From: Dehalococcoidia bacterium
Lineage (GTDB): Bacteria; Chloroflexota; Dehalococcoidia; Lucifugimonadales; QGNO01
Reading direction: 5' to 3'
Length of the DNA: 64,000 nt
NCBI GenBank assembly: GCA_965249115.1
Contig: CBDFLI010000002.1
Coordinates: 2,106,636-2,170,635 of the forward strand
Made by a program: the position numbers and the translations under genes. Below, piece by piece: positions 14,894 through 62,234 of the stretch (position 1 is its first letter; each line of letters begins with the position of its first letter). Under the pieces are notes generated by a model that saw nothing but the letters and a program-made list of their open reading frames with translations, did not search any database and was not told the origin of the DNA.

Positions 14894-14943
14894 GTTGATG
14901 CCTACACTGAGGCCAAGACACTCTTCATACGATCCGTGGAGGC
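14894..14943 (+). repeat. GrpB-like 3'-end fragment, copy 1
   Basis: Encodes VDAYTEAKTLFIRSVEA; 43/50 nt identical to 15713..15762. Confidence 0.7.
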
Positions 14944-15121
14944 CCTGACGTTATCAGGATGGCAAAGCTCTCTCCTTGACCTGATAAACGAAGACCTTTA
15001 CCCTTGCGGTGTCAGTGTGGCGGCCTACGGAGTTCCGGCCAGTTGGTGTGGGTTATCTCGGTAGGGACCACCTCTAAGCCGCATTAACTGGAAGCAACGG
15101 GACCCCCTTCCCGGCGCGAGT

Positions 15122-15541
15122 TTGAGACGAAAAGTGCACGCTCTCTTCAAAATCTTCGGTATCCTCTGGCTCATCGGGGGAGGTGTGGCTACCGTTGGTC
15201 TCTTAGCGCAGCTCTGGCTAATATGGAGAGACCCGGCTCTTCCTGTTGGAGTTCCTGCTGCCGTACCTTTCTTTGGTTCTTTGCCTTTTCTTGGGTTAAC
15301 TGGGGCAGCTGTTGCCAACGGATTAGGGCTGGTCACACGCAAACGTTGGTCCCGGTCCGTCACTACCATTCTGTCGACCATCCTGCTCTTGTTCAGCCTC
15401 GCCAGCCTGGTTCTTATCGGATCGGCGACCGGTATCATGCCGCTCCTTTTAATGGTGGTCCTGTTCTTGATCGGGATTTCTGGGCTCTGGGTCATGCTGT
15501 CAAGCAGAGGGAAACGCGCCTTTGAGGTGTATGTGTCCTGA
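15122..15541 (+). CDS. Hypothetical membrane protein (about 4 TM)
   Basis: Strongly hydrophobic 139-aa ORF; start uncertain (TTG 15122 or GTG 15134). Confidence 0.65.
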   Translation: MRRKVHALFKIFGILWLIGGGVATVGLLAQLWLIWRDPALPVGVPAAVPFFGSLPFLGLTGAAVANGLGLVTRKRWSRSVTTILSTILLLFSLASLVLIGSATGIMPLLLMVVLFLIGISGLWVMLSSRGKRAFEVYVS

Positions 15542-15617
15542 TTCATTGGAGATGCGAATTCCACTGGTCATATTGAGGAATAACATATCGGGGTCGAGAT
15601 GGAGTTGGACCCGGCCA

Positions 15618-15762
15618 CACCTTATTCCCCGTGACTACCTCCGAGCCCATCCCGACACGGCAAGGGAGTACCTGGTCCTCAGGAGGAGTTCACCGCAGCT
15701 TCCGGCGACTACGTTGATGCCTACGTCGAGGCCAAGACACCCCTCATACGGTCTGTGGAGGC
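15618..15762 (+). pseudogene. GrpB/UPF0157 family C-terminal remnant with frameshift (copy 2)
   Basis: HLIPRDYLRAHPDTAREYLVLR, then after a one-base shift in AGGAGGAG: EFTAASGDYVDAYVEAKTPLIRSVEA. Matches the GrpB tail pattern HLxFRDYLRxHP...AYxxAK. Confidence 0.7.
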
Positions 15763-15899
15763 TAGGCCGAGCCGGTGGGCGGGAAACCAACGGTCTGCCT
15801 GGTTTAGTAAACGACGGCCGCCACGGTCACGGGTTCGTGGAGGCTGACGGCGCTAAGTAAAAGACGACCCCTCTCGAGGATTTCGCGTTTGAGTCGTCA

Positions 15900-16365
15900 C
15901 TATGCGGCTGTCTGAGCTCCAACGACGCGGGCAATGGCCTCGCGCAATTGATAAGGGCTAACCGGTTTGCTGACCACCAGATCTACTGATTCGGGGATGT
16001 CCCCGGTAAGCGGCATGAGGTGACCAAATCCGGTCAACATGATGATAGGCGTTTTGGGCGCACGTGCTTTGATATGCGCTGCGAGTTCGTCGCCATTCAT
16101 CCCTGGCATCGCCCGATCTATTACCACCAAGTCGAATTGGTCCGTCTCGAAAGTCGCCAAGGCGGAGTCTCCAGTGCTTGCTACATTAATTTCATGGCCA
16201 TCTGCCCTGAGACAATCTGCCACAATCTTGAGAACCACTGGTTCATCGTCGACAGCGAGGATTCGCAGGGGGCCCGTCCTGACTGCTTGAGAAGCGTTCC
16301 CGTTCGCCGAGGATAGTGCGCCAGTAGAATCTATCGGAAGCTGGATGAAGAACGTGGTGCGGTGG
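15900..16365 (-). pseudogene. C-terminal remnant of a hybrid histidine kinase (last HATPase strand + intact receiver)
   Basis: TTFFIQLP linker then ILAVDDEP...DLVVIDRAMPGMNG...IMLTG...SKP; the phospho-Asp, Thr and Lys are present. It may still be translated as a stand-alone receiver. Confidence 0.7.
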
Positions 16366-16797
16366 ACCGTTGCTACATCGTTAGTATCTGTCCTGTTCAT
16401 AGTGGCGGTCTCCTCAGTTTTCGCCACCACTCACCTGTGGGAGAAAACTGTGGATGGCGTAGACTTGGACGCTCAGGCAAGCATACAGGACAATGGAAAT
16501 CGTTCCTGGGCTGGGGCCGCAGCTTCACATGCAAGTGAGGACATCGCCTCAATTGGGGCACATGTTAAGGGAATAGAGAAATGTTTCCTCTCGACCTACA
16601 CCCGTTTTAATCCAAGTTGGACATGGGACGCTGATTCGCAATGGGCTGTGTCGAACGGGAACGGCTCTTACTCAAGCACTGCAGGATGCCTTGGTTTCCA
16701 GCTCCTACAATCTAAAGGTAGTCATGATTTCTATGATGGAGGTCATGGAATTAACGAGTCACCGTCTACATTAAACGCGATAGTACTCGCCCCATGA
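16345..16797 (+). CDS. Hypothetical secreted protein
   Basis: Sec-type signal peptide ending VFA; S/G/N/W-rich mature part with two Cys; followed by a strong terminator. Confidence 0.65.
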   Translation: MKNVVRWTVATSLVSVLFIVAVSSVFATTHLWEKTVDGVDLDAQASIQDNGNRSWAGAAASHASEDIASIGAHVKGIEKCFLSTYTRFNPSWTWDADSQWAVSNGNGSYSSTAGCLGFQLLQSKGSHDFYDGGHGINESPSTLNAIVLAP

Positions 16798-16807
16798 TGT
16801 GATTGCC

Positions 16808-16848
16808 AAAGGCGTCCCTTTGCGTAGGCAGAGGGGCGCCTTTTTTTT
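16808..16848 (+). terminator. Intrinsic terminator
   Basis: GGCGTCCCTTTGC-GTAG-GCAGAGGGGCGCC stem followed by T8. Confidence 0.88.
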
Positions 16849-16892
16849 CTTGGAAGAACCCGAGATAGTGGTGGTACAATTTCCTAGTCAAT

Positions 16893-16990
16893 TCACGGCG
16901 TTCGGGCAGTTCTAGTCCGAATTAATTCCTCCAATGTCCCGGAAAGCCGAGCAGTATCCTCATGGGCATATCGTCCGAATTCCATCCAGA
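16893..16990 (-). pseudogene. Possible signalling-helix remnant of a histidine kinase
   Basis: YAHEDTARLSGTLEELIRTRTA resembles the LE.LV..RTAEL coiled coil that precedes HisKA; same strand as the other kinase remnants. Confidence 0.3.
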
Positions 16991-17104
16991 CGCGAAGCGT
17001 AACTTCCCAAGACAAAGGCACAGGCGAACGGGCGGAGGTGACGTTGTTTGTCGTTCTCATTGCAGAAGAGGGCCGACCCATTCTTCGTAAGATATAATTG
17101 GTGT

Positions 17105-17848
17105 ATGAGAGTCTCGCTCAACCTGATCTTCATCGCAGGTATATTTGCAACGTTGCTACTGGCCGCTTGTGCCCAGGTCGAGCCGACTGCCACACCTGCC
17201 CCGGCTGTTACGGGTATCATAGGACCCAAGTCCTTGCCTGGGCTCAAGACCGCGACTTTCGGTCCCGATGCAGAGTTACTCGTATACGCTCGCACACGTA
17301 GGTCCGAGTATCTAGAACTTCCGGGATGGGCGGCAGTACCTCCAAGTGGAAGATTGAACCCCCCGGTGACTATCACTGAAGCCTGGAGTCTCGTGGATGG
17401 AACGGGGTTGGTTTCTCGGGCACATGGGATTGTTAGCACACCTGATGGGGGCGTGATCCAAGAGAGTTTCTACGAGACCGGGGGACCGCTGGTCACCTTT
17501 ACTTCTGAGGGTACAGAATCATACCGTCCGCCAGGGGACATTCTGAGAGTGATTCTCGACCGGGGCCAGGACATTGAATCGGCGATCTTGGACCCGGACT
17601 GGATTGAGGTGTCCGATTCTACGACCGGCGGTATCAGAGTCTTTGAGCTTCATCGAGCTCCAACTGAATTCATTACCATTGGGACGATACTAGTCGCAGG
17701 GTACGACGCCACTGGCGCTATTGTGCAGACCACAATTACTGAGGCCGAATCCGGAATGCTGATAGAACGTATGACAATTGAAGTCTTTGACGTCAGCGTC
17801 TCATCAGGTCTCGATCCAAAGATATGGGAGGCAGTTGCTGAGTGGTGA
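17105..17848 (+). CDS. Hypothetical lipoprotein
   Basis: Lipobox LLLAAC, then a P/T/A-rich linker (EPTATPAP); TATAAT 6 nt before the ATG suggests a leaderless mRNA. Confidence 0.8.
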   Translation: MRVSLNLIFIAGIFATLLLAACAQVEPTATPAPAVTGIIGPKSLPGLKTATFGPDAELLVYARTRRSEYLELPGWAAVPPSGRLNPPVTITEAWSLVDGTGLVSRAHGIVSTPDGGVIQESFYETGGPLVTFTSEGTESYRPPGDILRVILDRGQDIESAILDPDWIEVSDSTTGGIRVFELHRAPTEFITIGTILVAGYDATGAIVQTTITEAESGMLIERMTIEVFDVSVSSGLDPKIWEAVAEW

Positions 17849-18013
17849 TGGAGTTGGACATGCTGCCACACCGACAACCAAAGTTATCAGTGCTCCGAAT
17901 GCTATTCAAATGGTCACTCTTGTAATGGCAGTTGTACAGGTGTCATCTGCTCAAGTTATACTGGGCTTGGCACATGCGGTGGTGGTGGACCAAATGGTCC
18001 TAGCAGTGGATAG
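17849..18013 (+). other. Startless Cys-rich reading frame in phase with the lipoprotein TGA
   Basis: WSWTCCHTDNQSYQCSECYSNGHSCNGSCTGVICSSYTGLGTCGGGGPNGPSSG*; 8 Cys in 54 codons. Confidence 0.5.
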
Positions 18014-18059
18014 CGGCGGGGTGAATAATTCGAATGAATACAGCGATGGCAACGCTGGC

Positions 18060-18246
18060 CAGGCATCATCGCTGTACCGTGTGCCTTGAGAAGGATGACG
18101 TTATTATCCAAGCTCGAATGGAGGAATAGCGAAATTCCTGTGGCGAGCACCAGCGCAACGACAAAGGTGGTGGCCGAGTACCAGAATAAGAGTCGATCCT
18201 TCAGGTGTCCCAAATTAGCCTCCCAAGAACGACGCTGTTTATTCAA
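18060..18246 (-). pseudogene. N-terminal membrane-anchor remnant, probably of a sensor kinase
   Basis: LLFWYSATTFVVALVLATGISLFLHSSLDNNVILLKAHGTAMM (one TM helix), after which the frame loses coherence. Confidence 0.4.
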
Positions 18247-18307
18247 ACAGCATAGCAGGGAACCGGTTACCGAGCCTGGGGGGCTGCACCACTTGGGGAG
18301 AAGAATT

Positions 18308-18475
18308 TCACGCAGCGGGGGCCTTCTTCATCAGCCTGCTGTAGATGAGCCATGATACGGCGCCGGCCTTGGGGGCGCTCCATTTCAGGCCCATGAGTGT
18401 CACCAGGAGGACCAGTAGCGGCGTCGAGGCCAAAAGCCCGTTGGCGAGGTTCAGCGTAGGGCCGGGTGATTCCAC
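18308..18475 (-). pseudogene. Truncated L-lactate permease-like N-terminus
   Basis: RBS AGGAGG + GTG; TLNLANGLLASTPLLVLLVTLMGLKWSAPKAGAVSWLI resembles the LctP N-terminus but stops after 55 aa. Confidence 0.5.
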
Positions 18476-18632
18476 TAATTGCGCCTCCTATTCGGCCTGG
18501 ACAAGTCCTTCGTGCGCCGTCGGCGCTAGCAAATATAGCAGCGACTCGGTAATGCAGCAATTGGCGTAGCCTTTTTAGGACCAGGCACACGGCCGGGCAG
18601 GTGCTCCCGTTCTGCTCCCTGGTTTTGACGGA

Positions 18633-18679
18633 TTGACACGTAATAATTCGCGCAACTATAATGACTAACCAGTTAGTCA
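18633..18679 (+). promoter_or_regulatory. Sigma70 promoter with TetR-type operator
   Basis: TTGACA(18633)-18 nt-TATAAT(18657); perfect inverted repeat TGACTAAC-CA-GTTAGTCA (18662-18679) over the start site. Confidence 0.8.
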
Positions 18680-18700
18680 GTTATTATAGGATAAACGGTA

Positions 18701-19294
18701 ATGCCGCGACCCGACGTCAGCCAGAAACGCACGGCCCAGATACTAGATGCCGCAACCGTCGTCTTCGCACGCTCAGGCGTCCACCAGGCCTCCATGGACG
18801 ACATCGCCCGGGAGGTCGGCTTGAGTAAGGGCTCCCTTTACGTCTATTTTGAAAGCAAGGACGATATCATCGCAGCCATCCAGCAGCGGTTGCTCAACGT
18901 GGACCTGGAAGCCCTGCGCTCCTTCCTGGCGGCCCCAGGACCGGCCAGCTGGCGACTCCTATTGCTCACCCAACGCATGGCCCAGGACGTGGAGCGGATG
19001 TCCCCTATGCTCTCCATCACGTATGAGCTGTACGCCGTGGCGGTGCGTAGTGAATCAGTGCGACAGGCGTACGAGGACTATTTCAAGGCCCATCGAGATA
19101 TACTGGCCGACCTGATCCGGCAGGGAATAAAGCGTGGCGAGTTTAGAGACGCAGACGCCCAGCAGTCGGCTATTGCCGTGATGGCCGTTTATCAGGGACT
19201 TATCCTGCTGAGCGCCATGGACCCCCACGTCGTCAAGTGGGAACAGGCCGGTAAGCTGGCGGTCGGTCTCCTGACCACCGGTCTGCGGCCATAG
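18701..19294 (+). CDS. TetR/AcrR family regulator
   Basis: QILDAATVVFARSGVHQASMDDIAREVGLSKGSLYVYFESKDDI HTH; TetR_C region GIKRGEFR. Confidence 0.95.
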   Translation: MPRPDVSQKRTAQILDAATVVFARSGVHQASMDDIAREVGLSKGSLYVYFESKDDIIAAIQQRLLNVDLEALRSFLAAPGPASWRLLLLTQRMAQDVERMSPMLSITYELYAVAVRSESVRQAYEDYFKAHRDILADLIRQGIKRGEFRDADAQQSAIAVMAVYQGLILLSAMDPHVVKWEQAGKLAVGLLTTGLRP

Positions 19295-19460
19295 GCCGGT
19301 ATCAGTCTCATAAGGGGGAAAAAATCAGTGCGTGGATTTCGCTGTGTTGGACTGGCAAGGACTGTTGGAAGGAGAAAAGTCTGCGTAGAACAACCTATGG
19401 ACACCTGGGATTACCCTGCTATCATTTGCTGACGACGGTGATTATCAAGGAGGGGTTGTC

Positions 19461-20111: not shown

Positions 20112-20150
20112 CTGGTGCCATGAAATAGTGAACACCGGGGGTGAAGAGCT

Positions 20151-20989: not shown

Positions 20990-22099
20990 CTACCGCAGGA
21001 CCCGTCGCAGATAGTCCAGGGCGTTGCCACCCGCTATCTTGGCCACGTCGGCGTCGGAGTAGCCCCGGGCGATTAGGCCCCGGATAATGTTCTTGCCGTC
21101 CGCCGTCGACTCCAGGCCATTCAGGTAGGGGGCATTGGGCACGTTGACAGTGATACCCCGGCTGGAGAAGGCGACGTGGTCACCTATGAGGGTGTCCGTG
21201 CCTATCCCAACGTGGTCAATCCCCACCAGCTTGACCATATAGTCGTACTGGTCAAGGACGCAGCTGATGTCCTGGTCCGGGTCGTCGCTCATTGAGTTGG
21301 GCACGGCGGTGATGCAGATGATGCCGCCCTTGTTTACGCACGAGGTCAGGGCTTCGTCCTTCACTGTTCGTTTGGTCTGTCTGAGGGTATAGGCCGCGTT
21401 GTGGCTGAAGATGACGGGCGCCTGGGAGTGTTCGATAGCCTCAAGGGCTGTCCTGTGGCCCGCGTGGGACAGGTCAACGGCCATGCCCAGGTCGTTCATC
21501 CGCGTTACAACCTGCATCCCGAACTCGCTTAGCCCGGCATCCGTGCGCTCATAGCAGCCGTCGCCTATGTAGGTCTTGTATGAGTAGGTGAGTCCCGCCA
21601 GACGGACGCCTATACCGTACAGTACGTCAAGGCGGTGTATCTGGTTGCCTATGCACAGGTGCTCCGCGGTGGGCAGGAAGCCCACTTTTCCCTGCTGCCT
21701 GGCCGACAGTATCTCGTCGGCGTTGCTCACCTTGACGGCGTCGGCGTCGTGGAAGCTGAGGTCCGTGACCATCATCCCTATCTCGTCCGCCAGCATTTCG
21801 AACTCGCCTGAGGCGCCGGTGGTGGTGCCCAGCCCCCCGCGGAAGCCGTTGGAGGTCCCGACGGCGGCCCAGCCGCCGTGCTTAACGGCCTCATATCCCC
21901 ACGTGTAGTCGCCTGCGTGCATGTACTCACGCAGCCTGTCCATGTCCTCGGGCAGGATCATGGGGTGGTCGTGGACGTTTACCATTACGCTCTCATCCAC
22001 CAGGCGTTGAAACCGTTTCTCCTGCTCATTGTCCAGGGGTACGGTCATGGACGGGACGCGTCCCACCTCTTTGGCCAAGGGTATTGCTGTGGGTGCCAT
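20990..22099 (-). CDS. Membrane dipeptidase family M19-like amidohydrolase
   Basis: GLSEFG...MNDLGMAVDLSH, PVIFSH, GIDHVGIGTD, KIAGGNAL; RBS AAGGAGG. Confidence 0.88.
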   Translation of the reverse strand: MAPTAIPLAKEVGRVPSMTVPLDNEQEKRFQRLVDESVMVNVHDHPMILPEDMDRLREYMHAGDYTWGYEAVKHGGWAAVGTSNGFRGGLGTTTGASGEFEMLADEIGMMVTDLSFHDADAVKVSNADEILSARQQGKVGFLPTAEHLCIGNQIHRLDVLYGIGVRLAGLTYSYKTYIGDGCYERTDAGLSEFGMQVVTRMNDLGMAVDLSHAGHRTALEAIEHSQAPVIFSHNAAYTLRQTKRTVKDEALTSCVNKGGIICITAVPNSMSDDPDQDISCVLDQYDYMVKLVGIDHVGIGTDTLIGDHVAFSSRGITVNVPNAPYLNGLESTADGKNIIRGLIARGYSDADVAKIAGGNALDYLRRVLR

Positions 22100-22113
22100 T
22101 GGAATATCCTCCT

Positions 22114-22175
22114 TTAGAACGCCGGTCTGGTCAGGACCGATGGGTCTACTTGCCGTCGGTGGCGCTGCCTTTTTT
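22114..22175 (-). pseudogene. Relic 3' end of a second dihydropyrimidinase paralogue
   Basis: KGSATDGK / VDPSVLTRPAF* parallels LGSPTDSK-LIPRK-IDPSVLTGPVF* of the adjacent gene; nucleotide similarity to 22181-22216. Confidence 0.7.
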
Positions 22176-22180
22176 AAACT

Positions 22181-23650
22181 CTAAAACACCGGTCCGGTCA
22201 GGACCGACGGGTCTATCTTACGCGGTATGAGCTTGCTGTCCGTTGGACTTCCCAGAAAATTTCTCTCCTCCAGCATCACCTTCCCGCGCAATAATACGGA
22301 GGTGGGCCACCCTGCGACCTCCCAGCCCACCCAGGGGTTGTAGTCCTTCAGGTGCAGGTCATCCATGCTCAGCCGTTTCTTCACCGAGGGGTCTATGATT
22401 GTGATGTCGGCGTCACTGCCCGCGGCGATGGCGCCTTTGCGAGGATAGAAGCCCAGAAGCTTGGCGGCGTTGGTGGAGGTGATCTCGGCGTACCGCTCCA
22501 GGGACATACCCTGTTTGACCACGCCCTCCGTGTAGGTGACGCCCATGCGTATCTCTATGCCGATGTTGCCACCCTGGGCGTCGGCCACGGTCTTGCCCGC
22601 TGTCTTGCCCTCGTATGTCGTGGCGATGCTGTCGGTGGCGACAAAGGCCAGGTCTCCGTTGCGCAGGCCTTCCCATAGGCGGAGACGGTCCTCCTCGTAT
22701 TTCTGGGAAGGGTAGGTGTGGTATATGGGCCCGCCGGGCTCTTTGTAGTTCTCGCTGGTAAAGGAGCAGTAGAGGAGAATGGTCTCTCCGTACACCGGCA
22801 GCCCTCTCTTGCGTGCCTCGGCAATGGCGTCCACCCCCTCCTTAGCGCTGGTATGGACAATGTACATCGCAGCCCCGGCGTGTTCCGCTATGCGTATGAC
22901 CCGTCTTACTGAGATGTCCTCCGATAGCTTGGAGCGGATGCGCGGGATGTTGTGAAAGTCCCAAAGCCCGCGCTCCCTGGCCATCTCGTAGTTGTACCTG
23001 ACTATCTCGTCGTCCTCGGCGTGGATGGCGGCGACGCCACCGTGCCTGGCCAACTGCTCCATCACCTCTGAGACCCGCCCCATGTCTATCATTGGGCCTG
23101 GTCGGACCGGTGTCTGGGGGGTCTGCCCTCTGACCGGTATATCCTCCTGGCGCAGTGGAGGACTCAGTATGAACAGCTTGAAGCTGGGGAACCCGTCGGC
23201 GATGAGGTCTTTAATCCCCGCCATGCCCTCGGGTGTGACGGCGCCCCTGTAGTTGCAGTGGGCGGAGTAGTCGGTATAGGTCTGGCCCTGAAAGTTAGCC
23301 ATGTGCTCTTGCACGGCACGCACCACGTCCGACTGCTCCGGTGTGGCGGCGGTGGCGAAGTCCACTATTGTGGTAGTGCCTCCCCAGATGGCGGCCCTGG
23401 ACTGCTCCACCGACCCTGCGTTCTCGGCGAACCACGTGTTGGGTATGTGGGGGAACCCTATATGAGCGTGGGCCTCAATACCACCGGGCACAACTATCTT
23501 CCCGGTGGCGTCCAGAGTTTTTTTCGTCTCCGGGGTGGTCGTTCCCGGCATCGCCAGGGCCACGGTCCGTTCGCCCTGTATCCAGACGTCCCACTCTCCC
23601 ACCCCTGTCGGGGTTACCACTCGACCGCCTTTGATCACAAGGTCCAGCAT
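22181..23650 (-). CDS. Dihydropyrimidinase/hydantoinase-like cyclic amidohydrolase (paralogue 1)
   Basis: MLDLVIKGG, GGIEAHAH, GGTTTIVDFA, SFKLF, IHAED, STNAAKLLGFYPRKGAIAAGSDAD. Confidence 0.9.
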   Translation of the reverse strand: MLDLVIKGGRVVTPTGVGEWDVWIQGERTVALAMPGTTTPETKKTLDATGKIVVPGGIEAHAHIGFPHIPNTWFAENAGSVEQSRAAIWGGTTTIVDFATAATPEQSDVVRAVQEHMANFQGQTYTDYSAHCNYRGAVTPEGMAGIKDLIADGFPSFKLFILSPPLRQEDIPVRGQTPQTPVRPGPMIDMGRVSEVMEQLARHGGVAAIHAEDDEIVRYNYEMARERGLWDFHNIPRIRSKLSEDISVRRVIRIAEHAGAAMYIVHTSAKEGVDAIAEARKRGLPVYGETILLYCSFTSENYKEPGGPIYHTYPSQKYEEDRLRLWEGLRNGDLAFVATDSIATTYEGKTAGKTVADAQGGNIGIEIRMGVTYTEGVVKQGMSLERYAEITSTNAAKLLGFYPRKGAIAAGSDADITIIDPSVKKRLSMDDLHLKDYNPWVGWEVAGWPTSVLLRGKVMLEERNFLGSPTDSKLIPRKIDPSVLTGPVF

Positions 23651-23840
23651 GGAAGCCTCCTGGCACGGGATTCCGTAGACTTTGAACCCTGGGATACGCT
23701 TCCCGCGCCGCCAAGATTGTATGCGCACACCCGTGATGACTCAAGTGCCTGTGTCCTCAGGACCCTTGATCCTCAGGGAATGAGCACGCATCTAGATCAA
23801 TCTTGAGAGGCGTAGTCCAGAGGCGAGGGGCGTGCAGCCA

Positions 23841-38441: not shown

Positions 38442-39317
38442 ATGGGGAATCGGTTCGATGGCAAAGTGGCGGTGGTCTCCGGTGGAGGCAGAGGAATAGG
38501 CAGGGCAGTCGCGCTCCTCCTGGCCGAGGAAGGGGCCTCCGTGGTGGTCAACGACCTGGGCTGTGAGACCGACGGGACCGGACACCAGACAGGTCCCGCG
38601 GATGATGCGGTCAGGGAGGTCCGACGCATGGGAGGCAGGGCCGTGGCCGACTACCAGGACGTTTCCACCCTGGCCGGCGCCGAGGCGCTGGTCCGTAAGG
38701 CCGTGGACGACTACGGCAGGCTGGACATCCTTGTCAACAGCGTCGGCGTCCGTCGTGACAGTATGATCGCTGAAATGGCACCGGAGGACTGGGACGCCGT
38801 CCTACGCAACAACCTCAAAGGGTTTTTCACTGTAACAAGGTACGCCTGTAGTCAGATGCGGCACCAGGGAAGCGGGCGTATTGTCAACATGGTCTCCGAC
38901 GCCGGTATAAGTTCCACTCGTATGTCCAACTACGCTGCCGCCACGGAGGGGGTCGTGGGTCTCACCAGGACGGTGGCCCTGGAAATGGAGAGATACGGTG
39001 TGACCTGCAACGCCGTCTCCCCCCTGGCAAAGACGCGCCTGTTCCCTGATATGGTGAACGCGCCCGGGCCCTTCGAAAAAATAGGCGCCCAAAACGGGTC
39101 TGAAACTTGGGACGCACCGGAGGCCGCCGCTCCTCTGATAGCGTACCTGTGCACCGACGGAGCGGCCGGCGTGAGTGGACGCGTCTTCGGCGTACGCGGT
39201 GGCGACGTCTACCTCTACTCCGGTCCCAGCGTACAACGCGCCATCTATGCGCCGGGCCTGTTCAGCCTGGAGCAACTGGGCGACATGGTGCCTGGCGTGT
39301 TGCTGAATGACGGATAA
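38442..39317 (+). CDS. SDR oxidoreductase (VVVNDLG subtype)
   Basis: SGGGRGIG, VVVNDLG, YAAAT (catalytic Lys replaced by Thr), CNAVSP. Confidence 0.9.
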   Translation: MGNRFDGKVAVVSGGGRGIGRAVALLLAEEGASVVVNDLGCETDGTGHQTGPADDAVREVRRMGGRAVADYQDVSTLAGAEALVRKAVDDYGRLDILVNSVGVRRDSMIAEMAPEDWDAVLRNNLKGFFTVTRYACSQMRHQGSGRIVNMVSDAGISSTRMSNYAAATEGVVGLTRTVALEMERYGVTCNAVSPLAKTRLFPDMVNAPGPFEKIGAQNGSETWDAPEAAAPLIAYLCTDGAAGVSGRVFGVRGGDVYLYSGPSVQRAIYAPGLFSLEQLGDMVPGVLLNDG

Positions 39318-39343
39318 TATAGCCTTGAAATAAGGGGGACAGT

Positions 39344-40273
39344 TTGAGCGGAAGATTGAAGGGTCTTGTAGCCATTGTGACCGGCGGCGGCGGAGGTATT
39401 GGCCGTGGTGTCAGTAAATGGCTGGCCAGAGAGGGCGCCTCCGTGGTGGTCAACGACCTTGGTGGCGCGCTCGACGGCTCCGGTGGTTCCCGGGGCCCTG
39501 CCGATACTGTGATAGCCGAGGTCAAGACCGAGGGCGGTGACGCCATCGCCAGCTACGATACTGTGGCCACCTTCCAGGGTGCGGAGAGGATAGTCCAAAA
39601 GGCGATTGACACCTACGGGCGTCTGGATATCCTGTGTCATGCTGCCGGCGTCCTCAGTGACCGCATGGTGTTCAACATGACGGAGGACGAGTGGGACACG
39701 GTGGTCCAGACCCACCTCTACGGTGCCTTCAACATAGTCCGTCACGCGGTGCCCCACATGGTGCGGCAGAGGTATGGCCGTATCCTACTATTCTCCTCCG
39801 TCTCGGCGCTGGGCAACGTGGGCCAGGCCAACTACTCGTCTGCCAAGGCGGGCCAGATCGGCCTTGCCAACGCCCTGGCCCAGGAGCTGGCCCCGCACAA
39901 CATCACCGTCAACGTTGTGTTTCCCGGAGGCGACACCAGGATGACCCAGGGCCTCCCGGAGACGTCCCAGGCGTACATTGCCCAGTGGGGAGCGCCTTCT
40001 GTGGGTGCGGCAGAAGTCACGGACCTGCGTGACCCCGAGCGTAACGCCCCCAAGGTTGCCTACCTGTGCACCGAGGCCGCCGCCAATATCACGGGCCGCA
40101 TCTTTGGGACCTTTGGCCTCCCCATGACCCTTTACTCACAGAGGCAGGCGATAAAGGTGCTCCACAAGGACAGCCCGTGGACGCTGGAGGAGTTGGAGAC
40201 GCTTATGCCTAACTCCCTGACCCAGGGCCTGGTAAGTACGGTGGCAGCTGACCATCAGGCTGAGGGACCATAG
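39344..40273 (+). CDS. SDR oxidoreductase (VVVNDLG subtype), tandem paralogue
   Basis: TGGGGGIG, VVVNDLGG, GNVGQANYSSAK; TTG start. Confidence 0.9.
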   Translation: MSGRLKGLVAIVTGGGGGIGRGVSKWLAREGASVVVNDLGGALDGSGGSRGPADTVIAEVKTEGGDAIASYDTVATFQGAERIVQKAIDTYGRLDILCHAAGVLSDRMVFNMTEDEWDTVVQTHLYGAFNIVRHAVPHMVRQRYGRILLFSSVSALGNVGQANYSSAKAGQIGLANALAQELAPHNITVNVVFPGGDTRMTQGLPETSQAYIAQWGAPSVGAAEVTDLRDPERNAPKVAYLCTEAAANITGRIFGTFGLPMTLYSQRQAIKVLHKDSPWTLEELETLMPNSLTQGLVSTVAADHQAEGP

Positions 40274-47517: not shown

Positions 47518-47546
47518 GTAGCCGCCACTAATCTCTGCCCGTGCGG
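47518..47546 (+). repeat. comM-like att repeat, left copy
   Basis: GTAGCCGCCACTAATCTCTGCCCGTGCGG (VAATNLCPCG); 23/29 identical to 49401..49429. Confidence 0.65.
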
Positions 47547-49400: not shown

Positions 49401-49429
49401 GTGGCCGCGATAAATACCTGCCCGTGCGG
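49401..49429 (+). repeat. comM-like att repeat, right copy
   Basis: GTGGCCGCGATAAATACCTGCCCGTGCGG (VAAINTCPCG), continuing CYG. Confidence 0.65.
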
Positions 49430-56726: not shown

Positions 56727-57095
56727 GTGATGAAAACGATTCTCATTGCCGACGATGAAGAGGCAATCAGAGCGCTGGTGATTGCAACGTTAGGGAATAG
56801 CGACGCCTTTTCCCTGCTAACAGCCGGCGACGGAGAAACGGCGATTCAGCTTATCCGGAAGACCGTCCCGGACCTGGTTTTCCTGGATGTAATGATGCCT
56901 GGACGCAACGGGCTTGAGGTATGCCGGGAGATAAAGAGCGACCCGGCGCTCAAGCATATCAAAGTCGTTATGCTGACCGCTCTTGATGCCGAGGAGGACC
57001 GGCAAAGGGCGATGGACGCCGGGGCCAGTGACTATTTCACCAAGCCTTTCAGCCCAACAAAGCTGTTGCAGAAGGTCCGTGAGCTTTTGCCGTGA
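56727..57095 (+). CDS. Single-domain response regulator
   Basis: ILIADDE, PDLVFLDVMMPG, VMLTA, YFTKPFSP. Confidence 0.93.
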   Translation: MMKTILIADDEEAIRALVIATLGNSDAFSLLTAGDGETAIQLIRKTVPDLVFLDVMMPGRNGLEVCREIKSDPALKHIKVVMLTALDAEEDRQRAMDAGASDYFTKPFSPTKLLQKVRELLP

Positions 57096-57171
57096 GCGTT
57101 TAAATGAGTAGCAGTGGACCGCCCGTTCCGCACTACGTCGGGAGCGAGTCGTCAGGGCAGGGGAAGACGAA

Positions 57172-58557
57172 ATGAGCAGTGGCGTCACCCCGGTGAACGA
57201 CACAATAACGCGGACCTTTGATGACCTTGAACGGCGGCAACTGGAGATCTACGCCAGGGAGCTCCAGGAGCATTTTGACGAAGAACACCGTTTGCGGCAG
57301 GAGCTTGAAAAGCGCAATAGAAACCTGGAACAGCGGCTACGTGAAATCGCTGCAATAGAAGGAATGAATAAGACCATATGGCGACAGAACGAGAAACTTT
57401 CTCAAATTCACTCGCTGGCGCCGGCCACACACAACCAGACAGGGGACGCGGTTGCGGAGCTGTCCCTTACCCTGGTGTTGCAAAGAATAGTTGACCTGAG
57501 CCGCGATCTGGTGCCGGCGATGCACGGCGGCCTGATGATAGTGGACAACGGAAGGCGGTCATCCTTCGTCACATCCGGGCTCAACCCCACGGAGAAGTCG
57601 GCTTTGGAGGCCTATCTCAGGGACAGCGGAATTTCTGGGATCCTGGGCAATGAACTGAAGCCTACAGCGCAAATAGAAAGAGGCTCACCCCCTCGGGACA
57701 ACGAGACTCCATCGGACAAATTCCAAGTAACCGGTTTGCTGGGTATACCGGTGATTAACAGGGGCAAACACCTGGGGAACCTGTATCTCCTGAACAAGCC
57801 GGGTGACGATCCGTTCACCCAGGAAGAGTCAAGTCTGATGTCCATGTTTGCCACACAGGCGGCGGTGGCCATAGAGAACGCTCAAAACTACCGAAATATC
57901 CAGGTCCAGTCCATTGTGGAGGAGCGGGACCGTATAGGGAGAGACCTGCACGACAATACCATCCAGTCTCTCTACGCCCTGGGGTTGGAGATGGAAGACT
58001 GCGCCGAGGTTGCCGTTGACACGCCCCGGGAAGTCCAGACCCGTTTGCGACGGTCTGTGGGCAGGATCAATGAAGTTATCTCCAGTATCAGGACCTACGT
58101 GCTGGACCTGCGGCCCGATGACCTGGCCGAACGGAAGCTCCATGAGCATATGGAAGAGTTGGTGGAAAGTTTCAAGGGCGCTGGGATTTCCCGGCTTGAA
58201 CTGCTTTGGGACGTGCAGCAGGCTTTGGTCCTTTCTCCCAATCAGATATCTCACTTCATAGCCATAGCAAGAGAGGGGCTGGCCAACGTTGTGAAGCACG
58301 CCGGAGCCACCTCCGCCGTCCTCGGCTTCTCGACCGACGGCACATATTTTAAGCTATGGATAGAAGACAACGGCGTCGGGTTCGATACCAGGGCATCTGT
58401 TGGCAACCGGCACCAGGGGCTCAGGAACATACATGATAGAGTCCAAGCCCTTGGAGGGACCCTTCAGGTCCAAAGCAGGCCCGGGCAAATGACACGGCTG
58501 GATATAACCGCGCCCATTGGGCGTCACGCTCCGGTAACCGTCAGGAGTGGGCAATGA
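57172..58557 (+). CDS. Cytoplasmic GAF + HisKA_3 sensor kinase (DosS/NarX class)
   Basis: N-terminal coiled coil, GAF (GNLYL...FATQAAVAIENA), ERDRIGRDLHD, EGLANVVKHA, DNGVGF, GLRNIHDR. Confidence 0.92.
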   Translation: MSSGVTPVNDTITRTFDDLERRQLEIYARELQEHFDEEHRLRQELEKRNRNLEQRLREIAAIEGMNKTIWRQNEKLSQIHSLAPATHNQTGDAVAELSLTLVLQRIVDLSRDLVPAMHGGLMIVDNGRRSSFVTSGLNPTEKSALEAYLRDSGISGILGNELKPTAQIERGSPPRDNETPSDKFQVTGLLGIPVINRGKHLGNLYLLNKPGDDPFTQEESSLMSMFATQAAVAIENAQNYRNIQVQSIVEERDRIGRDLHDNTIQSLYALGLEMEDCAEVAVDTPREVQTRLRRSVGRINEVISSIRTYVLDLRPDDLAERKLHEHMEELVESFKGAGISRLELLWDVQQALVLSPNQISHFIAIAREGLANVVKHAGATSAVLGFSTDGTYFKLWIEDNGVGFDTRASVGNRHQGLRNIHDRVQALGGTLQVQSRPGQMTRLDITAPIGRHAPVTVRSGQ

Positions 58558-59198
58558 GGATATTGATAGTCGATGACCATGAAATTGTGCGTAACGGGCT
58601 GACCCTTCTCTTCAATCGGCAGAAGGGCTTTGACATTGTTGGCGAGGCTGGCTCGGTTTCCGAAGCGGTCCGGGTGGCCGCGGCTACCTCCCCGGACCTC
58701 GTGATAATGGACGTAAGGCTCCCCGACGGCACCGGGATTGAGGCGTGCCGGGATATCAGGTCGGCTAATCCCGAGACCAAAGTCGTGATGCTCACGTCCT
58801 ACTCGGACGATAAAGCGCTGTTTGACTCCATCATGGCGGGTGCCAGCGCCTACTTCCTCAAGCAGGTGGAAAGCAAAGCACTGGTCGCCGCCGTACAGCG
58901 GGTTGCCAACGGAGAGTCCCTCCTTGATCCGGCCGTTACGCAAAGGGTCCTCAACAAGGTGAAAGTCCTCATTTCAGACCCTTCTGCCGACAAACAGTCC
59001 GGACCCTCCCCCCAGGAGCAGGAAGTCCTGGCCCTCATCGCGGAGGGAAAGACCAACCGAGAGATCGGTCAGGAGATGTACCTCAGCGAGAAGACGGTCA
59101 AGAACTACGTGAGCAACATCCTGGACAAATTCAACCTGAGCAGGCGCTCCGAAGCGGCGGCCTACTACGTCAGGTCACAGGTTGGGGACAAGTCCTAA
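58554..59198 (+). CDS. NarL/DevR-type response regulator (REC + LuxR HTH)
   Basis: IVDDHEIVR, MDVRLPDG, MLTSY, LKQ, GKTNREIG...LSEKTVKNYVSNI; ATGA overlap with the kinase. Confidence 0.95.
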   Translation: MRILIVDDHEIVRNGLTLLFNRQKGFDIVGEAGSVSEAVRVAAATSPDLVIMDVRLPDGTGIEACRDIRSANPETKVVMLTSYSDDKALFDSIMAGASAYFLKQVESKALVAAVQRVANGESLLDPAVTQRVLNKVKVLISDPSADKQSGPSPQEQEVLALIAEGKTNREIGQEMYLSEKTVKNYVSNILDKFNLSRRSEAAAYYVRSQVGDKS

Positions 59199-59212
59199 AG
59201 TCTTACGCTGAC
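59138..59212 (+). repeat. 75-bp direct repeat, copy 1 (3' end of the response-regulator gene)
   Basis: First 44 nt identical to 62161-62204; overall 3 substitutions + 1 indel versus 62161..62234. Confidence 0.9.
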
Positions 59213-59474
59213 CAGCAGCCGTCATCTCCCTTTACTTCCGCCCGTACGTCAAGGCATGGACAGGCGTCAGGTCGTGAATGAAAGCCACGTCGGTAAGCCC
59301 TGCTGGCCATTGCGGGTGGCGGGCTTTCTCAGGTGGCCGGGCTGCTCCACCTAGCTCCTCCACCAGGGCCTGAAAAGCCTCAGGCCATAAGTCCCTTGTC
59401 CTCAAGCATCAGTCTGATCTGACCTCCGTCAAACCCGGAGCGAGGTCCCAGAAGTTCCAATCTGGTTCTGTCAG

Positions 59475-60041
59475 TTACTCTTGGACGTTCAGGTGGGAAG
59501 AGAAATTGACTGCCCTCAGAGAGTGTCGAGTAGGGGAGAGTTCTTCCGACATCTTGGCAAGCTGCTCCAGTTGCTCTCTGGGAGCGCTGCTCTTGACGTA
59601 GTAAGTAGCTCGGATATCCTGAAAGCCAGCGGCTACAGCCCCGGGCTCCGGCAGGCCCAGCATACCCTGGAGATCAATGTCGCCCTCGACCTCTATCCTC
59701 AGCCCTTCGATAGAAATACCCATACTCGCTCCATAAGTCGCCCAGCCTGATGCCAGGCAGTGACCCAAGGCTGAGAGTAGCACCTCCACCGAGGATGGGC
59801 CTTTGTCGGTTCCCAGGAGCTCCTGGGGGTGGTCTCCTACGATTGTGAAGGCCTTTTTGCGGGACGTGTCGTTTATAGCCCCGCCCATGGAGAACGGCTT
59901 GACTACGGCTTCGTTATGGAAGCCGCTCCTCCATATAGTGGTCGCATAAAAAGCAGCCTTAGCGACCTGGGGTTCTGCCTTCACCATCTCCACCATGTCC
60001 TGAATCCCCTGGACATTCAATCCATTAACATCCGTTGCCAT
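59475..60041 (-). CDS. OsmC-like protein
   Basis: VNGLNV, IVGDHPQELLGTDKGPSSVEVLLSALGHCL, VEGDIDLQGMLG, GFQDIR, SPT; RBS GGAGG. Confidence 0.85.
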   Translation of the reverse strand: MATDVNGLNVQGIQDMVEMVKAEPQVAKAAFYATTIWRSGFHNEAVVKPFSMGGAINDTSRKKAFTIVGDHPQELLGTDKGPSSVEVLLSALGHCLASGWATYGASMGISIEGLRIEVEGDIDLQGMLGLPEPGAVAAGFQDIRATYYVKSSAPREQLEQLAKMSEELSPTRHSLRAVNFSSHLNVQE

Positions 60042-60096
60042 TGTGGCACCTCCGTCTAAGATTGTCGCCATTATCCAGGGGATAAAGGCCCTCATC

Positions 60097-60114
60097 ATCT
60101 GACGAACGTCGGAT
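60097..60114. promoter_or_regulatory. Candidate activator site upstream of the OsmC-like gene
   Basis: ATCTGACG-AA-CGTCGGAT (one mismatch), just upstream of the expected -35 for a GATAAT -10 at 60070-60075 (minus strand). Confidence 0.45.
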
Positions 60115-60251
60115 TTAAGTGGACAGAAATTCCCAGAAGCCGGCCCTTTCTGTGAAAACGACAGGCCTGTCGATGTAATACAGGGCTTTGCTGAGAAATT
60201 GGATAGGAAATAGCTCTAACGGGAGAGAGGCTTCTTGAACGAGACGCCTGC

Positions 60252-61862
60252 TTAGGGCAGCAAGTCGTGTTCCACAGCAAAGAGAGCGGCCGCAGCCCGA
60301 CTCGACACACCAATCTTGCTGTAGATATGTTCCAAATGGGACCGGACAGTTCCTTCAGCTATGAAGAGAGCCCCAGCCACTTGCCGCCTATTGAGGCCTT
60401 TAGCTATGAGACGGAGTACTTCAACTTCTCGATCAGTAAGCCGGGCAGGCCATTCTTGTTGGCGGGTCCTCTGCCTGGGAGAGCTATCTACTCCACTCAG
60501 GTCCTCCGTCAGAGCCTGGAAAGCGTCGGGAGAGAGCCTACTTCCTACTTCTTGGCGCATCACATTGACCGCCTGGTCTAAATCGAGACCTGGGTTCTCA
60601 GGCGCATCATGAGTAAGCTCATCGAAGCGGTCGGCCACAGCGATAATTCGTGCCCCTAGCGGTATCTCGGAGCCCTTGATCCCACGATAATAGCCACGGC
60701 CGTCCATCTCCTCGTGATGTGCTGCCACGAGGGGAATAAGCGGCTCCAGAGCAGGGACTTTGGACAAGACTCGCTCCGAGTGGTAGGGGTGGAGTCGCAC
60801 TTGCTCTCGCTCGGCTTCGGTCAGGGTGTCCTGGGACTTGTTCAGCAGGAAGGACGGTACGGCCACAACCCCAATATCATGCACTAACGCCGCTTGATAG
60901 ATGATGGTTACCTGGGATCCTGTCAGCCCCATCCTCTGAGCGATGCGCTCTGCTAGATTGGCTATTCGGCGCGAACGGCCAGCCCAGAAAGGCAATTTCA
61001 GGTCGGCATAGTCGGCCATAGCCAGCGCCACGTCAACCACTTTCCCTTCTCCCATATACCGATAGGGAGACCGCTCTGGCTCCATGAAAATCACGCTGTC
61101 CCACACCCTTTCCTCTTCCAGTCCTCTCCAAAAGCTGTCCTTTTGGGCCACAGTGAGGAAGGCATCCACTACCGATGGATCGAAGGCTTTGCCGCGCCGT
61201 GCCAGGGCCACGTGCTTCGCGGCTTCACGACCGTCCACTCGATGGAAGACCTCCATGAAGCTCGTCATCAGCACGATACGAGAGATGATAGAGATGGCGT
61301 CGCTCTTGATACCGTACGGCATCCCGTGGCCGTCCCATTGCTCAAAAACTTGCATCAGCGCGTCCTGGACTGTTTCGGGCATACCTAATCGCTGAGCAAT
61401 GCGTGAGGCTACCTGGCAGGTGCTCTCAAAGCCTTCTTTCATGAACTTCCGCCCCTTTATCAGGAAGTCCAGAATATGAGTAGCACGGGTTGGAAAGGAT
61501 GCTCCAGCCGCTACATACTTGAAAAGCCATGAGGCCATATCCAGAGGGTTGCGGGAATTGCGGAAGAACTGGAGATCCCGCTTGGCAGCGAGTTCGTCCA
61601 CAAGCCAAGAACTGGCTAACTGGCTGGTCCAGGTAGTGCAGCCGGCGTCCTTCAACAACTCGGCGTAGTACAGGTCGGTGCGTTGGTTTAGAGGAAGCTC
61701 CATCTCCTGAGCGATGTGCATGCCAATGTAGCAGGAGCGCGCGCCGTGCTCCATATCCAACCCCATTGCCAGGTCGCTTGCCAGGGAGAAGGCCCCTAAC
61801 AAGTCGACTGTTCGAATTAGGTTCTCTTCTGGCGCTGTCGGCGGAGGTTCTGACATCAGCAT
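60252..61862 (-). CDS. Tandem HD/HD-GYP-like domain + C-terminal LuxR HTH regulator
   Basis: LLKDAGC, LVHDIG, HPYHSE, HHEEMDGRGYYRG, RIIAVAD; LTDREVEVLRLIAKG...TVRSHLEHIYSKIG. Confidence 0.9.
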   Translation of the reverse strand: MLMSEPPPTAPEENLIRTVDLLGAFSLASDLAMGLDMEHGARSCYIGMHIAQEMELPLNQRTDLYYAELLKDAGCTTWTSQLASSWLVDELAAKRDLQFFRNSRNPLDMASWLFKYVAAGASFPTRATHILDFLIKGRKFMKEGFESTCQVASRIAQRLGMPETVQDALMQVFEQWDGHGMPYGIKSDAISIISRIVLMTSFMEVFHRVDGREAAKHVALARRGKAFDPSVVDAFLTVAQKDSFWRGLEEERVWDSVIFMEPERSPYRYMGEGKVVDVALAMADYADLKLPFWAGRSRRIANLAERIAQRMGLTGSQVTIIYQAALVHDIGVVAVPSFLLNKSQDTLTEAEREQVRLHPYHSERVLSKVPALEPLIPLVAAHHEEMDGRGYYRGIKGSEIPLGARIIAVADRFDELTHDAPENPGLDLDQAVNVMRQEVGSRLSPDAFQALTEDLSGVDSSPRQRTRQQEWPARLTDREVEVLRLIAKGLNRRQVAGALFIAEGTVRSHLEHIYSKIGVSSRAAAALFAVEHDLLP

Positions 61863-62160
61863 GATCCTTACCGGAAGTAGCTCGTGAACCTTTCATGGTG
61901 AGTATGATCACCACCCCTCATGAACGTAATTATGCGGGCATTGCAGACGTTTGTGAAGCGGGAGTTCAATCTCACGGATGCGCCTCTAAGGGTAGTTCCC
62001 AAATTCTTGCGGCCCGAATCTAGCGCCCGGGCTCAGGCAACTGTTGGCACAGCGCTGCCATATGCGTATTTGCGTGCATTATCCACGCCTGACCTATCGG
62101 AAAATAGAGCCACATTCGACTACGACCGTCCATACTTTGGGTCTGTTCAGATCACCGCTG

Positions 62161-62234
62161 GAGCAGGCGCTCCGAAGCGGCGGCCTACTACGTCAGGTCA
62201 CAGGCCGGGGACGAGTCCTAAGTCTTACGCTGAC
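62161..62234 (+). repeat. 75-bp direct repeat, copy 2
   Basis: Encodes SRRSEAAAYYVRSQAGDES*, versus SRRSEAAAYYVRSQVGDKS* in the intact gene. Confidence 0.9.

Follow-up and report, generated by a model that had tools for sequence, protein, structure and literature searches.

How do small groups of genes come to lie between the 3′ end of a gene and a second, stranded copy of that end, with no recombinase of their own? The question is raised by a stretch of 64,000 nucleotides (the window) from a marine SAR202 (Chloroflexota) genome, in which a sequence-only reading had pointed to four duplicated coding fragments and taken them for a recurring signature. Three of these, the tails of a GrpB gene, of an amidohydrolase gene (called a hydantoinase in that reading) and of a LuxR-type regulator gene, are real and lie far beyond chance, whereas the fourth, a CPCG motif, is at chance level as DNA. 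The signature does recur, both genome-wide and in a relative, G008: repeats near genes form a pattern across this genome, made of a gene tail with its stop codon, a cargo and a stranded tail. This anatomy is directly observed, and in case 4 it is laid out as follows.

58554..59198, + strand: intact response regulator (receiver and GerE/LuxR HTH), the target gene (Pfam Response_reg 1.1e-27, GerE 2.8e-17)
59138..59224, + strand: gene-attached repeat copy 1, from 20 codons ahead of the TAA stop to 26 nt beyond it (direct-repeat search, sequence)
59228..59389, − strand: chimeric relic in the cargo (blastn and translation)
59475..60098, − strand: OsmC-like protein, cargo (Pfam OsmC 3.9e-15)
60252..61862, − strand: HD-domain (HD_5) protein with a C-terminal GerE/LuxR HTH, cargo (Pfam HD_5 3.1e-52, GerE 2.6e-17)
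62161..62246, + strand: repeat copy 2, orphan regulator tail (SRRSEAAAYYVRSQAGDES, then stop; direct-repeat search, translation)

The two copies of this 87-nt direct repeat are 3,023 bp apart. Their identity is 95% over 61 nt and 85% over 27 nt, and an indel of 1 nt follows the stop. Their ungapped score is 52, while at the 100-kb control distance a score of at least 22 is reached by one pair genome-wide. Regulator sequence is absent upstream of the orphan copy, and the junctions on both sides of this copy are covered by short-read contigs (61727-62190 and 62175-63126). G029 and G039, as well as six further SAR202 MAGs, have the same two-gene module of OsmC and HD-GerE in other genomic contexts. 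Part of the relic derives from a second HD-GerE allele, with 94% nt identity to the G029 gene, and to it are fused the last 18 codons of a methyltransferase, which in G039 adjoins OsmC.

Case 2 displays two tails of an amidohydrolase.

22179..22215, − strand: gene-attached tail (...DPSVLTGPVF, TAG stop) of the amidohydrolase/dihydropyrimidinase-like gene 22181-23728
22112..22148, − strand: orphan amidohydrolase tail (DPSVLTRPAF, TAA stop), abutting the RBS and start of a peptidase M19 gene (20990-22099)

The right copy of this 37-nt repeat (86% identity) is the true 3′ end of the gene, and the left one is an orphan whose TRPA residues agree with those of orthologues in relatives (ILTRPAV, then stop). 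The copies are 67 bp apart, and as the 30 nt that separate the tails could not hold any element, case 2 cannot be one; its interpretation as an integrated circle is impossible at this spacing.

In case 1, both tails have lost their gene.

14894..14943, + strand: short orphan GrpB-tail fragment (VDAYTEAKTLFIRSVEA), copy 1
15122..15541, + strand: ‘cargo’, a 139-aa predicted membrane ORF with a weak coding signal and no Pfam family
15601..15765, + strand: frameshifted GrpB C-terminal remnant of about 55 codons (Pfam GrpB positions 106-158 of 159), holding copy 2 (15713-15762)

This 50-nt repeat (86% identity, score 29) is real and far beyond chance, and the remnant matches PF04229 with E = 1.1e-8 when the frameshift is read through. 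It had been described as the duplicated end of a target gene, a part of the claim that falls, as no intact GrpB gene is present and both copies are orphans. The intact comM beside it, offered as a clue, is uninformative because comM, comEC and dprA are near-universal.

Case 3, the supposed comM/padR duplication, does not hold as DNA.

47518..47546, + strand: left copy, encoding VAATNLCPCG, a chance-level DNA match (score 12; tblastn E = 1.1)
49401..49429, + strand: right copy, VAAINTCPCGCYG, with sub-threshold likeness to ComM/Mg-chelatase (tblastn E = 0.008; Pfam PF01078 E = 0.079)

The pair covers 29 nt at 79% identity, and the 100-kb-distance control contains 1,360 pairs like it, or roughly 32 in every 64 kb. 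As a peptide, too, the comM-like motif is weak: the better of the two local tblastn values comes from a 3.5-kb search, and the Pfam Mg_chelatase hit stays under its cut-off.

We then surveyed direct repeats 150-6,000 bp apart with a score of at least 20 across the genome, using 100 kb spacing and inverted repeats as controls and gene calls from an in-house crude caller. The survey returned 483 HSPs in about 85 loci, against 2 at 100 kb and 12 in inverted orientation. Tandem-paralogue loci (29) and intragenic ones (20), together 49 of 91 nearby repeat loci, were removed before the 3′-end test. At 10 of the 41 orphan-type loci (13 by looser criteria) one copy lies across a gene’s stop codon and the other downstream; a shuffle of positions expects 1.6 such loci and reached 10 in none of 2,000 rounds. 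Eight loci end no more than 4 nt from the stop, where 0.34 are expected. The comparison with shuffled expectation gives a directly observed excess that is linked to gene 3′ ends. Apparent 5′-end analogues turned out to be IS copies or tandem repeats. The ten to thirteen cassettes, measured between the gene’s own 3′ end and the orphan copy downstream, span 0.5-3.3 kb; inserts range from 0.03 to 3.2 kb, and the repeats of 12 loci measure 37-126 nt, up to 218 nt.

These numbers bear on the suspicion that the repeats are chance similarities, assembly artefacts or tandem paralogues, in other words noise, collapsed strain variants or paralogue motifs. Case 3 is indeed at chance level, the paralogous and intragenic loci removed above are just of this kind, and the genome is a MAG in which an IS composite is surrounded by a suspicious, perfect repeat of 244 bp. 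However, chance does not square with the controls for distance and orientation or with the shuffled positions, orphan copies lie outside genes, and assemblers do not create diverged copies (86-97%). Independent short-read contigs span the filled structures, namely that of trpG and the case 4 junctions, and the depth of a repeat unitig is twice that of the flanks. Because of this spanning, the structures are not assembly artefacts, a possibility the sequence-only reading had itself raised, and their physical reality is a matter of direct observation. Such an origin is largely refuted already for cases 1, 2 and 4, and we consider it very improbable for the whole. In the Logan contigs of four runs, with a depth of 3-16x and k=31 contigs that cannot phase repeats >31 nt, no circular or empty-site joints were found.

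In 9 of the 12 cases, the homology of the copies reaches no further than the stop codon, and in 6 the stop codons differ between copies, for example TAG versus TGA after 48/48 identical bases. Differences are distributed over codon positions 1, 2 and 3 as 10, 6 and 21 (p = 0.003), and 65% are transitions. Given the different stops and the mostly third-position differences of this directly observed divergence, the pairs have the look of allelic versions of a single coding tail rather than of a fresh duplication.

Some pairs, such as those of trpG, SDR and the 126-nt case, are 97-100% identical, which also fits a duplication arising at insertion itself. According to such a scenario, breaks staggered by 35-130 nt would be filled in to leave a true long target duplication with tails identical at the start; addiction genes in the cargo, of the toxin-antitoxin or nuclease type, would perhaps cause these breaks. 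Besides the near-identical pairs (48/48, 125/126, 36/37), the toxin-antitoxin modules among the cargo of G000 and G008 are in line with it, and a published class was first framed in these terms (PMC2853133). Yet in 8-9 of 12 cases the distal boundary coincides with the stop, which random staggered cuts would not bring about; nor would they yield a different stop after a perfectly identical tail or enrich third-position differences, and most cargo is without nuclease or toxin. We hold this scenario to be improbable.

Empty sites, whose presence in relatives the sequence-only reading had proposed to look for, are directly observed for trpG and purH. The trpG tail of G004 and the DNA downstream of it align with the orphan copy and its downstream DNA in G000, and trpG adjoins trpD in five relatives; purH abuts a glycosyltransferase gene in at least 10 relatives, an empty site at order level. 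For the window’s own cases there is no close relative and no synteny among the relatives compared. In G008 the same anatomy occurs four times in 400 kb, including a HicAB cassette with TGA versus TAG stops. As the 400-kb samples of the other four of five relatives hold none or one weak case, the process appears patchy. No donor genome with the target orthologue natively ahead of the cargo was found.

The cargo is diverse: HicB, ParE with its antitoxin, DAHP synthase, FAA hydrolase, a TylF methyltransferase, cupredoxins, an alpha/beta hydrolase, a sensor kinase with its regulator, and OsmC with HD-GerE. Pfam detects no recombinase, integrase or transposase among the cargo proteins, and none of the genome-wide PF00589 or PF00239 matches falls inside a cassette, so that the reported lack of such genes in the 64 kb stands for the cargo genes tested. 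TIR-like scores at the cassettes equal the shuffled background, and no core motif is common to different sites. From these absences, all directly observed, it follows that one site-specific enzyme is unlikely. A DNA transposon or MITE was rejected on the same TIR-like scores and on repeat lengths that vary from 37 to 218 nt instead of being fixed; a diversity-generating retroelement was rejected since the cargo has no reverse transcriptase and the mismatches, with their share of transitions, show no adenine bias.

Over the whole genome we counted about four intact tyrosine recombinases (about two of them non-Xer), about nine large serine recombinases and copies of IS3/IS110. Large serine recombinases are not known to leave long repeats. 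The genome also holds a normal 47-kb island with an integrase and a 47-bp repeat, and one 218-nt repeat pair adjoins an integrase.

Could the cassettes then, as the main rival explanation has it, be left over from site-specific integrative elements, or be satellites of them (CIME-like or tycheposon-like)? Islands carrying an integrase would once have targeted the 3′ end of each gene, with a replacement tail in attP, and their integrase part would later have been excised or have decayed, leaving att-flanked cargo. A duplicated gene or tRNA tail that stops at the gene end and carries synonymous differences is the classical att footprint, and the tyrosine and large serine recombinases present and the 47-kb island also speak for this origin. 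In G029 the cargo of case 4 has an integrase fragment and an excisionase-like gene in its vicinity, and the 218-nt pair points the same way. On the other hand, none of about 12 cassettes has an integrase or a recognisable fragment of one, and about 12 targets without a shared core would need about 12 integrase specificities, where the genome offers about two non-Xer tyrosine recombinases. In relatives, the spacers at trpG and purH vary in size but would mostly not have accommodated an integrase, and the 67-bp case cannot be an element. We regard this origin as possible but rather unlikely.

The explanation that we prefer is that the repeats are, quite possibly, scars of a recombinase-independent, homology-guided capture of a relative’s downstream genes at gene 3′ ends. 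DNA of a related genome would bring that genome’s version of the gene tail with other genes behind it, pair with the resident gene via this short tail of about 35-130 nt, and have its far end, without homology, joined illegitimately. The intermediate could be a circularised fragment that integrates through one crossover of the Campbell type. Alternatively, a double-strand break could arise close to where the gene ends, and its repair would copy the foreign template before the other broken end is joined. Both intermediates would give the same topology, in which the gene ends in an imported tail and stop and is followed by the cargo, by the resident tail stranded with its own stop, and finally by the DNA that originally lay downstream. 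Long duplicated tails would be lost, since recombination between them would remove the insert, and only short ones would persist. The genome has no Ku gene, which leaves the illegitimate joint without an obvious enzyme. What we infer are the donor and the intermediate, the enzymes at work (host functions, with or without RecA) and the way in which the DNA entered. The homology-based uptake of cassettes first proposed for this window is retained in part: stop-codon boundaries and allele-like divergence fit it, while the circle is excluded for the 67-bp case.

Most accessory genes of streamlined uncultured marine bacteria have no visible vehicle, and a reproducible, countable scar would help here. 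It indicates that host recombination with relatives’ DNA can add genes cassette by cassette at the ends of housekeeping genes, provides a bioinformatic handle to measure homology-guided gene gain across genomes, and flags hotspots in SAR202 such as trpG-trpD and purH. As the orphan marks the ancestral junction, it also gives the polarity of insertion. The capture model is directly testable in competent laboratory strains. A more tentative, somewhat doubtful extension is that small cassettes, notably toxin-antitoxin ones, may spread in SAR202 and many other prokaryotes as enzyme-free mobile units, with nothing but a short tail copied from a conserved gene as their ‘integration module’, host recombination inserting them exactly behind the stop codon. 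If this is true, gene gain would have a further general route beside integrases, transposases and integrons.

Several known systems share parts of this anatomy. The duplicated gene tail left by e14 in E. coli icd is an att footprint. Together with phage 21 in the same gene, tRNA/tmRNA islands, CIMEs and tycheposons, whose footprint is a tRNA tail (bioRxiv 10.1101/2020.12.28.424599), it belongs to the elements that restore a 3′ end. As in our cassettes, the gene bears a replacement tail and the displaced one lies downstream, homology ends with the gene, differences are synonymous and the repeats (attL/attR) are the 3′ end of the target gene. These elements, however, encode or depend on an integrase specific for one att site, whereas the cassettes have no integrase in or beside them, about 12 unrelated targets without a shared core, and cargo of 0.03-3.2 kb.

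Homology-facilitated illegitimate recombination and insertion-duplication (Campbell) integration in natural transformation (PMC3240628, PMC3784515) likewise combine one homologous anchor with one illegitimate joint, host recombination alone adding DNA and making duplications. Those are laboratory phenomena, usually with deletion of recipient DNA or large merodiploids, while the cassettes are known from sequence. The H47 island of E. coli, recombinase-free, is also a small island between short direct repeats, excised by host functions only and independently of RecA (PMC5426353); its excision has been demonstrated, but its repeats are not gene tails.

The closest parallel in footprint is ‘insertion with long target duplication’ (ILTD), a class described for restriction-modification units (Nobusato et al. 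2000; Furuta et al. 2010, PMC2853133), with inserts <20 kb without mobility genes and direct repeats >30 bp that are single-copy at the empty site of a relative. ILTD repeats sometimes overlap a gene 3′ end, and the class is frequent in naturally competent species, its mechanism being given as unknown (PMC2853133). Our cassettes agree in insert size, in the lack of a mobility gene, in repeat length (87, 50 and 37 nt in the window) and in the flanks joined with a single repeat copy in a relative, at trpG (G004) and, at order level, at purH. They differ in their cargo, which is toxin-antitoxin, regulatory and metabolic, not restriction-modification, in their many sites within one genome, and in the stop-codon boundary and allele-like copies, which favour an imported tail over a duplicated target. 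The restriction-modification cargo of ILTD reflects how the class was discovered, not the footprint itself. The scope of ‘this lineage’ first given to the signature is too narrow, the footprint being published for other bacteria (PMC2853133); since it was described there for restriction-modification genes, the present cassettes extend a known class rather than found a new one.

Direct repeats lying close together are in large excess in the genome under study, a two-contig MAG of 2.73 Mb and 58% G+C in which the window occupies C2:2106636-2170635. Its self-comparison (12-mer seeds, ungapped extension) gave, at score ≥20:

483 direct pairs 150-6,000 bp apart
2 direct pairs 100 kb apart (control)
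12 nearby inverted pairs

At score ≥18, the nearby direct pairs merge into 91 loci; with genes called by an in-house codon-usage caller, these divide into 29 tandem-paralogue loci, 20 confined to a single gene and about 41 with an orphan copy. Ten orphan loci follow a strict 3'-end rule, one copy starting within a gene and reaching its stop codon while the second copy lies downstream, and they become 13 with a 2-hydroxyacid dehydrogenase, the amidohydrolase discussed below and one weaker case. Position shuffling predicts 1.6 such loci, and none of 2,000 shuffles reached 10; eight repeats end within 4 nt of the stop, against 0.34 expected from the same shuffling. Analogues at 5' ends were all spurious (IS copies, a tandem repeat, a paralogue), and, at spacings of 6-150 kb, the repeats were mainly those of paralogues, with one integrase island of the ordinary kind.

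The genes whose tails are duplicated include uvrA, an enoyl-ACP-reductase-type SDR and another SDR, purH, trpG, the 2-hydroxyacid dehydrogenase, a Ser/Thr kinase, a collagen-repeat protein and, in the window, a response regulator. The cargo between the copies measures 0.5-3.2 kb, is mostly lower in G+C, and encodes HicB, ParE with its antitoxin, DAHP synthase, FAA hydrolase, a TylF methyltransferase, cupredoxins, an alpha/beta hydrolase and a kinase-regulator pair. Pfam searches found no recombinase among cargo genes, the cassettes have no terminal inverted repeats, and no k-mer is common to the repeats in gene orientation, as a shared att core would require. Apart from STK-hydrolase paralogues and one 331-nt repeat, the cargo has no second genomic copy, which speaks against an intragenomic origin.

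Of 12 cases compared in fine structure, nine lose homology no more than 3 nt from the stop codon, and six have stop codons that sit at the same position but differ between the copies; in one SDR case, a tail identical at 48 of 48 bases ends in TAG or TGA depending on the copy, and unrelated sequence comes next. Differences fall 10, 6 and 21 times at codon positions 1, 2 and 3 (binomial p = 0.003), and 65% are transitions. The mismatches show no adenine bias, which argues against a diversity-generating retroelement. Given the stop-codon boundary, the differing stops and the third-position bias, the two copies appear from their sequence to be alleles: each is a whole coding tail, and they have diverged under selection. 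The gene-attached allele is followed by cargo and the orphan allele by the original downstream DNA; two orphan copies have since gained in-frame stops.

Comparison with relatives (SAR202/Dehalococcoidia MAGs, the best at family or order level and none of the same genus) provides empty sites for two targets, in the following spacers:

C2:1612039-1615207 (L016), trpG-trpD spacer; relatives' loci are L226-L231
C2:2087338-2092678 (L014), purH-GT2 spacer

At trpG, the same-family relative G004 has a real trpG tail that aligns, together with the DNA behind it, with the orphan copy and what follows it; behind the gene-attached copy comes unrelated cargo. The trpG-trpD gap is only 67-190 bp in five others (G039, G009, G002, G014 and G022). 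In order-level relatives, at least 10 of them, about 40-70 bp separate the purH 3' end from a gene for a GT2 glycosyltransferase; here the gap is 5.3 kb and includes a repeat-flanked 3.15-kb cassette. The expectation of empty sites thus holds for trpG and purH; none was found for the window's own cases, because the searches gave no closer relative of the regulator target. In other relatives, each of these spacers is a hotspot of variation and lacks repeats: the purH-GT2 spacer reaches 3.2 kb in G039 (L024, different genes, no repeat) and 1.2 kb in G029 (L025). The trpG-trpD spacer gathers toxin-antitoxin genes across the family, with ParE plus antitoxin and a MazEF-like pair in the genome under study, a MazEF-like pair in G008, two antitoxin copies with MazF- and HicB-like genes in G012 and a HicB-like gene in G010; it is empty in five other relatives.

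The same pipeline applied to 400-kb samples of five relatives found no 3'-end case in G004, G029 or G022, one weak case in G039 and four in the same-family G008, including a HicAB cassette with tails ending in TGA and TAG.

Assembly artefacts do not account for these structures. In four public runs of one sample, single contigs run from trpG tail through cargo and second tail into downstream DNA, short-read contigs cover both junction sets of the regulator case, and at another locus a 111-nt repeat unitig has twice the depth of its flanks. Only the filled form was seen, at a depth of 3-16x, and no joint of an empty site or circle occurs among contigs whose 31-mers cannot phase repeats longer than 31 nt, which limits that search.

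The clearest of the four repeats first noticed in the window is that of the regulator, organized as follows:

58554-59198, receiver-GerE response regulator, the target
59138-59224, gene-attached repeat, 87 nt: last 20 codons, TAA stop and 26 nt downstream
59228-59389, minus strand, chimeric pseudogene relic, an HD-GerE piece fused to a methyltransferase end
59475-60098, minus strand, OsmC (Pfam), cargo
60252-61862, minus strand, HD_5-GerE protein (Pfam), cargo
62161-62246, orphan repeat copy

The copies are identical over their first 44 nt and then differ by a few substitutions and one indel; no regulator-like sequence precedes the orphan copy. In the relic, 33 codons come from a second HD-GerE allele (94% nucleotide identity to the G029 gene, 69% to the resident one) and are joined to the last 18 codons of the methyltransferase that adjoins OsmC in G039; this is evidence that cassettes turned over here before. 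For the target itself, an exact-protein look-up was empty and a metagenome scan gave nothing above 59% identity; the region beside ispG has no synteny in relatives. The OsmC/HD-GerE module occurs in eight other SAR202 MAGs, in unrelated contexts and never beside this regulator, sometimes near transposases or adjoining an integrase fragment; direct repeats around it were not found in G029 and G039. In the four runs holding the genome, k-mer depth over 59300-61950 is 20-40x that of the flanks, with many 90-95% variants, so the module is common among other organisms of the sample.

Among the other three, the amidohydrolase (hydantoinase) tail of 37 nt (DPSVLTGPVF, TAG) is followed 67 bp downstream by an orphan tail (DPSVLTRPAF, TAA) directly adjoining the ribosome-binding site of a peptidase M19 gene. 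The orphan's TRPA residues match the C-terminus of family orthologues (ILTRPAV*), and in relatives the two genes show no synteny and lie at separate loci. The genome has at least eight dihydropyrimidinase/hydantoinase-type paralogues sharing a C-terminal RKIDxSVLxGP motif, in line with the expansions of paralogues reported in SAR202; they include:

window 22181-23728
C1:39841-43382
C2:1339283, 1559788, 1561299 and 2137299

The GrpB case consists of two C-terminal fragments, the right one within a remnant some 55 codons long that carries a frameshift (PF04229, E = 1e-8), around a doubtful 139-aa membrane ORF; no intact GrpB is left there. These three duplications stand, together with the genome-wide pattern. 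The fourth, a comM-like repeat around padR, is at chance level as DNA (score 12, with 1,360 such pairs in the distance control), and its ComM resemblance is sub-threshold in Pfam and tblastn, too weak to use. A 62-nt repeat at 38520/39422 (77% identity) is a conserved N-terminal motif of two tandem SDR paralogues (38442-40273) and does not belong to the signature.

About 37 kb before the window, at C2:2066400-2069746, a perfect 244-bp direct repeat encloses an IS3 interrupted by an IS110 (three genome copies, 99.6-99.9% identical). Target duplications made by IS3 are far shorter, and the repeat is either a further long target duplication or an assembly patching artefact. With this composite, purH, GrpB, the amidohydrolase and the regulator, five repeat scars fall within about 110 kb (C2:2.06-2.17 Mb), the genome-wide rate being about 4-5 per Mb, and this region, window included, looks like a local plasticity zone.

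How would such cassettes arrive? Their anatomy is compatible with pairing by homology next to the gene and illegitimate joining at the distal end. A circularised fragment could integrate by one crossover, or a break near the gene end could undergo one-ended repair with foreign DNA as template; by either route, only short duplicated tails would be expected to survive. The small circles initially proposed fail for the amidohydrolase, whose 67-bp spacing excludes a circle for that event and fits the repair version. Alternatively, individual loci could be relics or satellites of integrase elements. Recombinases are indeed encoded elsewhere, as had been suggested: about four intact tyrosine and about nine large serine enzymes, besides IS3/IS110 elements. 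The cassettes and their immediate surroundings contain none of these, the one exception being a 218-nt repeat pair that falls within a 47-kb integrase island of ordinary type, and about 12 unrelated targets without integrase trace make the integrase-relic reading less economical. Classical islands are also present, as illustrated by that 47-kb element (C2:1101907-1148979; perfect 47-bp direct repeats, tyrosine integrase at the right end). Ku is absent, which removes Ku/NHEJ as the joining enzyme. ComM, taken earlier as a hint of DNA uptake, is present along with ComEC and DprA; these genes are near-universal and therefore only permissive. The sequence-only view of cassette acquisition is thus partly supported, with homology-assisted capture preferred here.

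The footprint matches a published class, 'insertion with long target duplication' (ILTD; PMC2853133), and a recombinase-free, repeat-flanked island excising by host functions is already known (PMC5426353). Displaying the same footprint as ILTD, the cassettes described here extend a known kind of footprint rather than define a new one.
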